64,000 nucleotides of DNA from Hadesarchaea archaeon (GCA_029259175.1 JAPDJH010000004.1:1-64000); one strand, 5' to 3'. Counted from the stretch's first letter, positions 14,229-27,300 are shown. Program-made: numbers and translations. The notes: generated by a model not told the origin, from the letters alone.

Positions 14229-14912
14229 TCACAGGATCTGGTGCTCGTCCACGTGTCCGCCGCAGTACTTCCGGCCGTACAGGCTGATGCGCTCGATGGC
14301 GTGCTCCATGTTTTCGCGCGGGATTCCGGGGGCGTTCCAGAAGACCACCAAGACCGTTGAAGTGCCAAAAGTGATTTTTGGGACTTTCGAGTCGCCGATG
14401 GTGTACGCTGACACGATGCGCTGCTCGTCGCGCAGGATCACTTCGCCTGGTAGGGGGGCGAGCTTTCTGCCGTCGATCAAATCGAAGGGTTTCTCGTCAG
14501 GGCCTGCGAGGGTGGTCCGAACTCGGCCCTTGAGTCGCTGCACGTCGTAGACGCCGCCTGAGATCATCGACTCGACTGACGCCAGGAGGCAGGAGTCCAC
14601 CACGTTGTTTATGCGTGGGAACTTGCCCTCGAGGGCCCTCCGCAGCAGATACTCGGGGGCTGGTCGGTAGCTGGAGGGGTCGCGTCCGATTTGCTTGAAG
14701 AACGTCCGGTAGGCTTGGATCTCGGGGATTGCGCTTATCTCCGCGCCTTGGTGTTTTGACTGAAGCTCAGACACCACTTCGGCGATGCGGGCGTTCAGGG
14801 GCTCGACTTCTGGCTCCACCGTGACGCCGCTTATCAGCACGTAGCCGGCCAGAAATCCGGGGTAGCGCTCTCTGACTGCGGGATCGAGTTCCAGCGTGCT
14901 CATCACACTCAT
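14229..14912 (-). CDS. B3/B4 domain protein (PheRS-beta-like trans-editing factor)
   Basis: AYRTFFKQIGRDPSSYRPAPEYLLRR, PRINNVVD, GVYD, GEVILRD; start ATG 14912. Confidence 0.88.
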   Translation of the reverse strand: MSVMSTLELDPAVRERYPGFLAGYVLISGVTVEPEVEPLNARIAEVVSELQSKHQGAEISAIPEIQAYRTFFKQIGRDPSSYRPAPEYLLRRALEGKFPRINNVVDSCLLASVESMISGGVYDVQRLKGRVRTTLAGPDEKPFDLIDGRKLAPLPGEVILRDEQRIVSAYTIGDSKVPKITFGTSTVLVVFWNAPGIPRENMEHAIERISLYGRKYCGGHVDEHQIL

Positions 14913-15054
14913 ATCGCGGGTGCCGCTCTTAAGTGTTGGTATGGGGGTTGGGATTCCGCGCGCATGGGGCGCCAAAATCCGGAGGAAACTACGAACCTTC
15001 GGAGTTGTGTGTAAGGGACGCGGTGTGGGGTGCTGAAATGAAGAGCTGGTCCTA

Positions 15055-15345
15055 TCAACGGTGGACGCTCGCAACAGTTTGTGAGCGATGATGTCTAGAA
15101 CAATGTTGCTTGAGTGGTGTCTGACTACGAACCTTCGTAGTCCACTCTACGAGTTCGCGGGCGCGGTACACTCTCAGCTCACGGACTCCGAATTCCTTGA
15201 GCTTGGTTGCGAACTCTAGGGCGAGGCGCAGTTTGCGGAATTCGACGACTGACTGCTGAACGCGCTCGCCGCCGATCTCCTTCAGCTGGCGGTAATGCCA
15301 GCCGGAGAGGCCCCTTCCGCTTTTGTCGAAGATCACCAAGTACAC
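15055..15345 (-). CDS. Stand-alone Cas2-like (Cas2/VapD/PaaX-middle ferredoxin fold) small protein A
   Basis: YLVIFD first strand ending in Asp, GGERVQQSVVEF motif (Cas2 G..VQ.SVF), ~70-aa core. Confidence 0.7.
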   Translation of the reverse strand: MYLVIFDKSGRGLSGWHYRQLKEIGGERVQQSVVEFRKLRLALEFATKLKEFGVRELRVYRARELVEWTTKVRSQTPLKQHCSRHHRSQTVASVHR

Positions 15346-15371
15346 TCGAATCCGTTTCCCCTTGGGTGGTT

Positions 15372-15384
15372 GGTTACTTATAAA
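15372..15384. promoter_or_regulatory. GGTTACTTATAAA TATA motif between Cas2-like gene A and its repeat cluster
   Basis: 12/13 match to GGTTGCTTATAAA at 27110-27122 and 4250-4262. Confidence 0.55.
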
Positions 15385-15648
15385 GCGATAAATCGGTGAA
15401 CTACGAACCTTCGTAGTACAATCTAACCAGAATACGGAGATATGCAGTGCCTACTGCTCCCATGAGTGAAAGCCTGCTCTACGAACCTTCGTAGTGTTCT
15501 CGCCGCCGCCAGAACTACGAACCTTCGTAGTTGGATCTACCACCCTCGAAGCCCACACTATTCACACCCAGCTGCATGATGACTACGAACCTTCGTAGTC
15601 CCGCACAAACCCTAAAATTTTTCTCCCGGCGCGGCTGAAAACGAACTG

Positions 15649-16230
15649 ATGCGTCCCCTCCCGCGCGCCTTCTACGAGCGCCACCCCGCCCGCGTCGCCC
15701 GAGAATTGCTCGGCCACATCCTGCTGAGCCGGTCTGCGGGCATAACGACCTCCGGGCTCATCGTCGAAACAGAGGCCTACCTCGGCTGCAACGACCCCGC
15801 CTCGCGCGCCTCCTACAAGCGAACCCCCATGAACGAGATCATGTGGGGTCCCGGCGGACTCGCTTTTGTTTACATGGTCCACGGGAACAGGCTGTTCAAC
15901 ATCACGGCGAATCCCCCAGGCATCCCGGGCGCGGTCCTCATAAGAGCCGTGGAGCCGCTCGGAGGAATAGAAGCCATGAAATCGAGGCGACGGTGTGAAG
16001 ACCCCCGCTTGCTCACCTCTGGGCCCGGCCGATTGACCCAAGCGATGGGAATCGAAAAACGACACCACGGGAGCGACGTGACGGACCCAAAAAACGAAGT
16101 AGTGGTGGTCAGAGGCGCTGGAGGAAAGCTGGAAATAGCCTCGTCGCATCGTATCGGAGTCCGCGCCGACGCCGCTCGTCCGCTCAGGTTTTTCGTGAAA
16201 CACAACCCCTTCGTGTCCAAATCCAGATGA
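15649..16230 (+). CDS. mpg: DNA-3-methyladenine glycosylase (MPG/AAG)
   Basis: IVETEAYLG..DPAS, AFVYMVHG, AVLIRAVEP, SGPGRLTQAMGI, RIGV. Confidence 0.93.
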   Translation: MRPLPRAFYERHPARVARELLGHILLSRSAGITTSGLIVETEAYLGCNDPASRASYKRTPMNEIMWGPGGLAFVYMVHGNRLFNITANPPGIPGAVLIRAVEPLGGIEAMKSRRRCEDPRLLTSGPGRLTQAMGIEKRHHGSDVTDPKNEVVVVRGAGGKLEIASSHRIGVRADAARPLRFFVKHNPFVSKSR

Positions 16231-26437: not shown

Positions 26438-26878
26438 ATGAAGCTTGTCGAAGTGCTCTCAGTTATTCTGATAGCGCTCATAGTGGCCATTTTGAGCGGA
26501 GTGGTTCTGTTCGGTGTGCTGGGCATTGCGCCAGACATCGAGCCGAGCATGATCGCGTTTGCTATGCTAGTGATGATGGCGATCACCGTAGGATCAACCC
26601 TAGTCTTCTACGTGGCGTTCACACGGTACGCCGCAGAACGGGCGGTACGCGTAGCGATGCTGGCGCTGAGCGAGGACGAGCGAGCGGTGCTCCAGAAGCT
26701 CATGGAGTTCGGAGGTGAGGTTCGCCAGGAGGATCTGTGGCGAAAGCTACGGGATCGGTACTCCAAGTCTAAGCTGAGCGCGCTCGTCATCAACTTGGAG
26801 CGGAAACACGTGCTCACGCGGCAACGGTAGTATCGGACAAACTTGCTAAGGTTGACTCCTGAGTTTAGGAGGAAATGA
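26438..26878 (+). pseudogene. Membrane-anchored winged-HTH regulator interrupted by in-frame TAG at 26828-26830
   Basis: 2 TM + LSEDERAVL...VRQEDL...SKSKLSALVINLERK; the frame continues after TAG as YRTNLLRLTPEFRRK-TGA, completing the wing. Confidence 0.6.
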
Positions 26879-27085
26879 CAAAGGTTTGTCATCGGAACGC
26901 AGGGGCACCACGAGCGCCCGCCCTCCGTTAGAATTGACGAGTTCGGCGAGCGCGCGGCACTGCTCAGGATTCTCCAGCTTCCACACGGACTGCTGGATCT
27001 GCTCGGCTCTGCACTGGTGGAGCTTTCGATTGAGCCTCAGCGCATTGTTTGTCCCGCAGATATCGTACACCAGCAGGTACGGCAT
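26846..27085 (-). CDS. Stand-alone Cas2-like small protein B
   Basis: MPYLLVYDI (canonical Cas2 start), LNRKL, QIQQSVW; GGGAG upstream of the ATG. Confidence 0.75.
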   Translation of the reverse strand: MPYLLVYDICGTNNALRLNRKLHQCRAEQIQQSVWKLENPEQCRALAELVNSNGGRALVVPLRSDDKPLSFPPKLRSQP

Positions 27086-27300
27086 CTCCCACGATCGCTT
27101 TGCGCTGAAGGTTGCTTATAAAGGAACAATAGAGCGGATGCTGGAATGACAAAGGTTTGTCACTCACTAAGCCACACTCCCACGATAAAGGTTTGTCAAA
27201 GACCGGCTGTGACAAAGGTTTGTCATCCGCTAGAAAAGTCAAGCTCTCATGACAAAGGTTTGTCAAAGCTCAGACACCAGTTGCGACAAAGGTTTGTCAT
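26875..27300. repeat. Array B: six copies of 16-bp palindrome TGACAAAGGTTTGTCA
   Basis: Copies at 26876-26891, 27147-27162, 27183-27198 (CGATAAA variant), 27210-27225, 27250-27265, 27284-27299 (first base C); spacers 20, 11, 24, 18 bp. Confidence 0.95.
27106..27122. promoter_or_regulatory. TATA motif between Cas2-like gene B and its repeat cluster
   Basis: TGAAGGTTGCTTATAAA; 20 bp from the gene start on -, 24 bp from the first repeat on +. Confidence 0.6.

Follow-up and report, generated by a model that had tools for sequence, protein, structure and literature searches.

We analysed a stretch of 64,000 nucleotides (nt) from a Hadesarchaea archaeon (GCA_029259175.1, JAPDJH010000004.1:1-64000), here called the window, in which a cluster of short palindromes, array A, encloses a small gene. 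Array A is real and selected, and is part of a recurrent module whose only gene encodes a stand-alone protein of the Cas2 superfamily. We lean slightly towards the view that the palindromes are the cognate duplex-DNA sites of this 67-residue protein, which would bind them as a dimer at its own promoter, at the end of its gene and beside the promoters of the two neighbouring genes; binding, dimerisation and regulation are what we infer here from comparing sequences. The initial annotation of the window had described the palindromes, but contained neither the enclosed gene nor the further arrays of the same genome. The features of module A, that is, array A with its gene, and the two flanking genes are the following.

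14988 to 15005, + strand: palindrome copy 1, ACTACGAACCTTCGGAGT, one mismatch (at position 15, G for T), some 70 nt upstream of where the B3/4 gene starts
15124 to 15141, + strand: palindrome copy 2, exact, beginning 3 nt past the last conserved codon of the small gene, within the unconserved tail of its open frame
15145 to 15345, − strand: small Cas2/VapD-superfamily gene, conserved 67-residue core, GTG start at 15345
15377 to 15384, − strand: TTTATAAG, a TATA-box-like octamer found by eye, 31 nt before the GTG and 15 nt after copy 3
15400 to 15417, + strand: palindrome copy 3, exact, upstream of the TATA-like box
15478 to 15495, + strand: palindrome copy 4, TCTACGAACCTTCGTAGT, one mismatch (T for A at position 1)
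15514 to 15531, + strand: palindrome copy 5, exact
15582 to 15599, + strand: palindrome copy 6, exact, 13 nt before an A/T-rich stretch (15613-15622) that itself lies ahead of the glycosylase gene
14229 to 14918, − strand: B3/4-domain gene (Pfam/NCBIfam scan), neighbour of array A
15649 to 16230, + strand: 3-methyladenine DNA glycosylase gene, divergent from the small gene

The palindrome, ACTACGAACCTTCGTAGT, is 18 base pairs (bp) long and is found six times on the + strand of the window, with four exact copies and two that carry a single mismatch. Only 0.04 matches are expected by chance, and the observed count was reached in 0 of 100 shuffles, so that the six palindromes with a CC core reported in the initial annotation are real. 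The CC centre is on the + strand in 6/6 copies, and since reading the minus strand always costs two or three mismatches, the orientation of the array is that of the + strand. The spacers measure 118, 258, 60, 18 and 50 nt in order, the last three as first described. It had also been noted that flanking bases extend the symmetry with differing pairs, and these pairs are indeed present (A/T at 14987/15006 and 15513/15532, G/C at 15123/15142 and 15581/15600). They are not independent, however: the 22-mers at 15122-15143 and 15580-15601 are identical, and 15398-15425 is 89% alike to 15512-15539 over 28 nt. The apparent co-variation of the flanks thus arises because the copies are duplicates, not from compensatory change.

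The form of the symmetry bears on how such palindromes might be read. A script found a repeated 16-mer at 25 of 32 loci of this gene family, and the symmetry of its centre was tested in these. Complementary bases form the outer pair of the 4-nt centre at 24/25 loci, where chance would give one quarter, and the whole 4-nt centre is self-complementary at 11/25, where chance would give one sixteenth. The symmetry therefore consists of 7+7 nt round a 2-nt centre at 24/25 loci. Because a hairpin cannot pair the inner bases of the centre, and these are nevertheless conserved, two-fold recognition of the duplex is favoured. In imperfect copies read on the sense strand, a rather noisy set, 27 G.T and 25 A.C combinations were counted, showing no bias towards wobble pairs. 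The earlier preference for a hairpin or cruciform over a sequence-read operator is thus not borne out, given the duplicated flanks, the 7+7 symmetry and the absence of a wobble bias.

The small gene lies within an open frame at 15055-15345 (− strand, 96 residues), which starts between copies 2 and 3 and reads through copy 2. An exhaustive phmmer search with its protein returned 10 proteins at E ≤0.001, itself included, and eight of these, with 70–100 residues each, were used for an alignment. Most of the aligned homologues match residues 1–67, and we therefore take 15145-15345 as the conserved gene and the tail through copy 2 as unconserved. A word-index protein search yielded nothing beyond the protein's own cluster, comparison with Pfam and NCBIfam gave no match, and no close relatives were found in phage records or viral contigs. 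The other open reading frames (ORFs) in this 730-bp segment are short and out of frame (43–58 residues), and no second gene was read there. The octamer TTTATAAG, which probably serves as the TATA box of the gene's promoter, recurs 29 nt before the ATG of a second module in the window, module B; in both modules it thus stands 29–31 nt before the start codon, with the nearest palindrome 15–24 nt further upstream.

Profile comparisons place the small protein, which stands alone, in the Cas2/VapD superfamily, and its predicted fold is broadly compatible with this. When 18 family members were compared by hhalign with 12 true Cas2 proteins drawn from related genomes, the two sets matched over 51 columns with a probability of 96.4% (E 1.4e-9). 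Three residues, D7, Q30 and S32, are invariant in the alignment of 18/18 family members, and the equivalent D (12/12) and the Q-x-S are found in the true Cas2 proteins as well. The family profile (A4) also matches Cas2 structures in the PDB (3exc, E 2.4e-5; 2ivy, E 4.1e-4); the narrow profile (A1) gave no Cas2 match there. Two sister proteins in the genome fall just below the Pfam cut-offs for CRISPR_Cas2 and for the Cas2-like PaaX_M domain, and the module B protein scores 19.6 bits against CRISPR_Cas2, below the cut-off of 23.8.

From the Atlas, a stored homologue, P0005, was taken in place of the window's own protein. The predicted model has a pLDDT of 92 and an order of secondary structure elements as in Cas2/VapD. 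In a Foldseek search of the PDB, VapD chains made up seven of the top eight rows, the remaining one being 1zpw (TT1823), which we take to be a Cas2; named Cas2 entries follow from rank 11, with E values of 2.7e-3 and weaker and TMq of 0.55–0.66. The title of the top row is 'VapD D7N mutant', and the conserved Asp is catalytic in both Cas2 and VapD. The variable segment of the protein consists of a loop and the first helix, residues ~8–24 of the model. As a separate observation, five separate stretches of a 750-residue protein, P0010, match the small protein (E 3.7e-5); P0010 may be a repeat protein made from part of the same fold.

The gene and its palindromes recur together. A broad profile found homologues in 34 of 66 genomes of the phylum, with 0–5 matched stretches per genome (one broken gene can give two matches), and a narrow profile matched in 14 of 65 genomes of the order. 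Loci of close homologues carry the palindrome CTACG-N6-CGTAG next to the gene in 12 cases out of 12, six from Hadarchaeota/Hadesarchaea genomes and six from metagenomes, several of them near-duplicates; the arrays hold 1–7 copies and usually begin 2–23 nt past the end of the gene, with an additional copy 17 nt before the start at some loci. Of 17 loci within the order, 13 have two or more like palindromes next to the gene and one more has a degenerate set; the other three comprise a fragment at a contig end, a gene fragment and a pseudogene. Among more distant loci, 12/20 have palindrome pairs, typically ~32 nt before and 13–65 nt after the conserved part. As a control, 33 of 1500 random 1.8-kb windows of this genome were positive, and many of these are arrays described here. 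The 16-mer of array A itself was absent from the 40 relatives searched, and a looser pattern occurred 0–2 times in each of 60. Among the papers listed by a literature search there was no description of stand-alone Cas2-like genes with palindrome arrays, and the terms 'archaea', 'solo' and 'DNA-binding' do not occur in PMC11980593.

Most homologues are flanked by 14–18 bp palindromes of their own, and these comparisons show that gene and palindrome are associated and vary together. There are ~20 different palindromes in all, and similar palindromes go with closely related proteins. Proteins with the motif LSGWHY have CTACG arms, PGRFY proteins have GACGTATAT[AG]CGTC, IPR[KS]FY proteins have TTGCGCA(GG/CG)TGCGCAA, a large group of proteins has variants of TGTCnnAnnTnnGACA, and the protein of the window's second module has TGACAAAGGTTTGTCA. 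In the PGRFY group the sites bracket the TATA box, with sites ~19 nt upstream of the TATA-like element and between the element and the start codon, the latter being a usual place for archaeal repressors.

Like arrays were found at nine or more places in this genome, among them the following (positions without a contig label are those of the window; the palindromes of the arrays on other contigs are 16 bp long).

26846 to 27085, − strand: gene of module B (26846-27299), a 79-residue ORF
26876, 27147, 27183, 27210, 27250 and 27284: six copies of TGACAAAGGTTTGTCA, one at the 3' end of the module B gene and five upstream of it
C16:6084-6924: Cas2-like ORF in the middle of an array with seven copies of TGTCCCATATGGGACA
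C7:6771-7086: pseudogene (a stop at a Trp codon and a frameshift), followed by copies of CTACGA-TAAA-TCGTAG
C1:41363-41570 and C14:4048-4326: orphan arrays with a TAAA core, their palindrome common to a gene-bearing module
C2:168904-169142: orphan array, its palindrome common to a gene-bearing module
C9:43129-43454: array of a 16-bp palindrome at a contig end

The arrays grow by local duplication, as seen in the 67–74 bp higher-order repeat of array B, the array of module B, and in three perfect 31-bp tandem units of one relative, and it is because of this growth that orientation is uniform within each array. The paralogous arrays on C1 and C14 align as units, with 78 of 80 palindrome columns identical and 75 of 125 spacer columns. 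Since the palindrome columns are so much better kept than the spacers, selection must act on the palindromes themselves, and those of array A are likewise clearly a selected, recognised element. The TAAA-core arrays lie between genes read, from translation only, as belonging to the shikimate pathway, and beside one read as an aldehyde:ferredoxin oxidoreductase. A regulon of amino-acid metabolism was considered for this reason, but the idea was weakened in that these arrays are homologous copies, spacers included, and the adjacent family gene is a pseudogene.

Some occurrences lie outside the Cas2-like modules. A single array A palindrome with part of its flank is found at C1:31305, upstream of an ornithine-cyclodeaminase-like gene (named from translation only). 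A degenerate pair lies at C1:216515-216598 (L080 2516-2599), between cas1 and cas4 of this genome's single CRISPR-cas locus and ~0.9 kb from the array of short palindromic repeats that are clustered and regularly interspaced (CRISPR); this may be coincidence or may reflect a link to the adaptation genes. At C3:183136-183873, six copies of CTACACACCCCTGTGTAG, an 18-bp palindrome, bracket a 109-residue HTH_23 gene, which lies upstream of a gene read from its translation as a ribonucleotide reductase. By analogy this locus would support the reading of array A as duplex-DNA sites, since it has the same architecture as the Cas2-like modules with an ordinary DNA-binding fold. Separately, in one distant subfamily (loci L086, L087, L090, L092-L096 and L099) a conserved gene of ~115 residues directly precedes the Cas2-like gene; its product mostly ends in ...KGG[KR]PVA and has no Pfam match, and a palindrome sits in the 30-nt gap after it. 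In the present genome the homologue of this gene (C15:2300-2617) lacks palindromes, and the ORF after it is a different one.

If the palindromes are the duplex sites of the small protein, the protein would act as a two-fold dimer in which each subunit reads one palindrome arm of 6–7 bp, the likely reading surface being the variable loop and first helix (residues ~8–24). Four sites are upstream of its own TATA-like box and one is at the 3' end of the gene, and the outermost two sites adjoin the promoters of the B3/4 and glycosylase genes. Given these positions, a protein on these sites would act back on its own gene and might influence the neighbour on either side. The gene and its sites form a self-contained unit, which grows by duplicating locally, has a patchy distribution, has been inserted here between two genes that lie side by side in a relative, and in another genome is found within a transposon-like unit.

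A number of observations weigh against this reading. One family member, on C8, has no array, 8/20 of the more distant loci have no palindrome pair, and the TAAA-core arrays are conserved although the adjacent gene on C7 is a pseudogene. Some subfamilies have their sites after the gene only, and in others they fall within the 30 nt that separate a conserved upstream gene from the ribosome-binding site, positions that would point rather towards RNA. Linked DNA that co-varies with a gene is partly expected from shared descent. In a VIA-align comparison, generic ferredoxin-like folds (Z up to 7.9) ranked above VapD (Z 6.2); shape is for this reason not diagnostic, and the Cas2 assignment leans mainly on the sequence profiles. 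We know of no Cas2-fold protein that binds DNA sequence-specifically, and as the catalytic-type Asp is kept, the family may act as nucleases.

Contigs from two RNA libraries of one sample also count against duplex-DNA sites: they cover 14987-15780 and 15271-15583, and their ends at 14987 and 15583 coincide with palindrome edges. They bear on a different explanation, in which the palindromes are RNA hairpins bound or cut by the Cas2/VapD-like protein, either in autoregulation of its mRNA or as a decoy or antitoxin as in type III toxin–antitoxin systems. We consider this unlikely, though worth keeping in sight. Cas2/VapD relatives among the PDB rows carry ribonuclease labels and the conserved Asp is kept; at many loci the stop codon is overlapped or touched by the first palindrome, with another 17–32 nt before the start, beside a Shine-Dalgarno-like GGTG; and each copy, as single-stranded DNA, can fold into a 6–8 bp stem with a 4-nt loop (−4.3 to −6.8 kcal/mol). 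The RNA-library contigs give a weak hint in the same direction, being strand-blind, of low depth, from a single sample and possibly inclusive of DNA; the body of the B3/4 gene (14413-14980) is covered in neither RNA run, whilst a DNA contig spans it. Against RNA hairpins, the predicted mRNA would leave out four sites of module A and five of module B, since these are upstream of the strong TATA-like box. The centre faces opposite ways relative to the gene, with AGGT on the sense strand in module A and ACCT in module B. The extension of the symmetry into the would-be loop and the lack of a wobble bias argue the same way, and Rfam gave no match at E up to 1.

The palindromes could instead be cis sites for cutting or strand exchange by a Cas2-like nuclease, the module being a selfish mobile cassette loosely comparable to REP/RAYT elements or to the hairpin ends of IS200-type elements; we find this improbable. 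Such a cassette would fit the patchy occurrence among the genomes of the phylum, the pseudogenes on C7 and, with stops, in other genomes, the homology of the orphan arrays including their spacers, and the dispersal of single copies with flank to other loci. It would also fit the insertion of the module here: the divergent B3/4 and glycosylase genes are 62 bp apart in a genome of the same genus (G001) and 730 bp apart in the window, so that the gene-plus-array segment is extra DNA in this lineage. One other genome (L031-L034, one assembly) holds four to five copies of a unit with the small gene, the only gene aligned and read there; two are complete, with four palindromes each, and two are cut at contig ends. 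The L031 unit measures 479 bp and is flanked by 8-bp direct repeats that agree at 8/8 positions (CCTTATTT/CCTTATTT), the L032 unit measures 452 bp with 7/8 (GGCTTCAG/GGTTTCAG), and both have 13-bp inverted ends. This combination of ends and duplications is the signature of a transposon moved in trans. Since the ends of the units lie ~65–85 nt outside the palindromes, their movement can be put down to a transposase that works in trans on the inverted ends, with no need for the small protein. The alignments contain neither an HUH motif nor a universally conserved tyrosine, and no inverted ends or target duplication could be recognised by eye round the window's own module. DNA contigs of two other samples span array A (one of them from 15066 onward) without insertion or deletion, joint, circle junction or loss of a repeat; they differ by single bases only, at 15186 (which we read as Val54 to Ile) and at 15460 in a spacer. 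Spacer content is therefore fixed across samples, which speaks against cassette turnover or turnover of the CRISPR kind. The gain and loss of spacers and the repeat-to-repeat deletions that the initial annotation proposed to look for did not appear in these DNA contigs, and its comparison with serine-recombinase crossover sites is not supported either, as Pfam detected no recombinase in the eight flanking ORFs scanned and the contigs of four runs contain no joints or deletions. It is a decidedly improbable further explanation that the palindromes are operators of another, unlinked regulator and the small gene a regulated passenger. The persistence of TAAA-core arrays without an intact adjacent gene would agree with it, as would the HTH gene of like arrangement, which implies that other binders of such arrays exist; but each of the ~20 palindromes stands beside a family member, similar ones with closely related proteins, and the small gene is the sole gene common to all modules examined. 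We give very little weight to the idea that array A might be a CRISPR in degenerate or miniature form, or an origin of replication carrying origin-recognition boxes. The short palindromic repeats, unique spacers and adjacent Cas2 relative recall the former, and an origin was raised by the near-unique motif in the genome and by a local maximum of the cumulative GC skew near 15 kb. The origin was dropped, since the Cdc6_C matches place both Orc1/Cdc6 genes on contig C4 and like arrays are common. As for CRISPR, an 18-bp repeat with spacers of 18–258 nt that show no insertion or deletion in two other samples does not fit, and no cas1 was matched in the small ORF itself or among the eight flanking ORFs scanned against Pfam. 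The genome's true array (C1:214332-215654) has a period of 69–76 and an unrelated repeat, and lies on the same contig as its csa1, cas1, cas4 and cas2 genes; the initial annotation was thus right that array A is no canonical CRISPR.

Two observations on the window stand apart from array A. The contigs of all four runs depart from it left of 14223 with the same 30 other letters, so that at the 3' end of the B3/4 gene its structure is not that of the other samples. Between 54700 and 64000, the G+C content falls from ~0.55 to ~0.40, and the genes there (a polysaccharide flippase, a UDP-glucose dehydrogenase, a sugar nucleotidyltransferase, an asparagine synthase and glycosyltransferases) make up a surface-glycan island.

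Comparison with known systems shows partial likeness to several. The small protein follows Cas2 and VapD in the order of the fold, in the invariant Asp with which strand 1 ends and in the Q-x-S of strand 2. It differs in an extra loop before helix 1, in that its gene stands alone, with no cas1 or CRISPR array beside it and no evident VapX-type partner, and in being tied to short palindromes of its own, which is not described for Cas2/VapD in the literature searched. The Lrp-type regulator Ss-LrpB is likewise encoded by a small gene with multiple 15–18 bp palindromes round its TATA box and has a few further sites elsewhere; here, however, the fold is that of Cas2 and not a helix-turn-helix, there are sites at the 3' end, duplication takes in whole arrays, and the module is patchy or mobile. 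Papillomavirus E2 and EBNA1 are also small ferredoxin-like domains that bind palindromes arranged in arrays, as the present protein would bind sites of 12–18 bp as a dimer, but they are eukaryotic viral proteins with no homology shown, and for our protein both dimer and binding are predicted.

The REP/BIME elements with their RAYT proteins resemble the modules in having clustered intergenic palindromes that flank the gene of the protein presumed to act on them, together with orphan clusters. They differ in that here the protein is Cas2-like and of 67 residues, with no HUH motif or subfamily-wide tyrosine (alignment A4), the copies number tens and not hundreds, and each array has one orientation. 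Type III ToxIN systems also encode a ribonuclease-family protein beside a short-repeat array. The ToxI repeats, however, are identical tandem units upstream of the toxin on one transcript, whereas here only a palindrome of 16–18 nt is conserved, each spacer is unique and their lengths are irregular, and array and gene are separated by a TATA-like box, with many copies upstream of the putative promoter. True CRISPR arrays again consist of clustered short palindromic repeats with unique spacers, but the repeat here is too short for a class whose repeats measure about 23 nt or more and recur at a near-constant period, the spacing irregular, the spacers without turnover and the surroundings without a cas operon.

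Taken further, the modules may be selfish elements that diversify their specificity, with ~20 pairs of protein and site. It is a rather doubtful possibility that they represent a living Cas2–repeat partnership outside CRISPR, in which stand-alone Cas2 homologues recognise, and perhaps cut, palindromes that multiply into irregular arrays; such a partnership may have been invented in parallel, or may be related to the ancestral toxin-plus-repeat stage that has been proposed for the origin of CRISPR adaptation.

If array A is indeed a set of duplex-DNA sites for its own small protein, the Cas2 fold would gain a function not described before, namely sequence-specific recognition of duplex DNA, and a recognition code could then be derived by comparison alone from the ~20 natural protein/site pairs. 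Cas2 relatives and clustered short palindromes would then be able to form a partnership outside CRISPR, which would bear on the way in which repeats and adaptation module became joined. The module also accounts for a set of unannotated intergenic arrays, and for genes of ~70 residues left blank by gene callers and Pfam, in a poorly known archaeal phylum, the Hadarchaeota.

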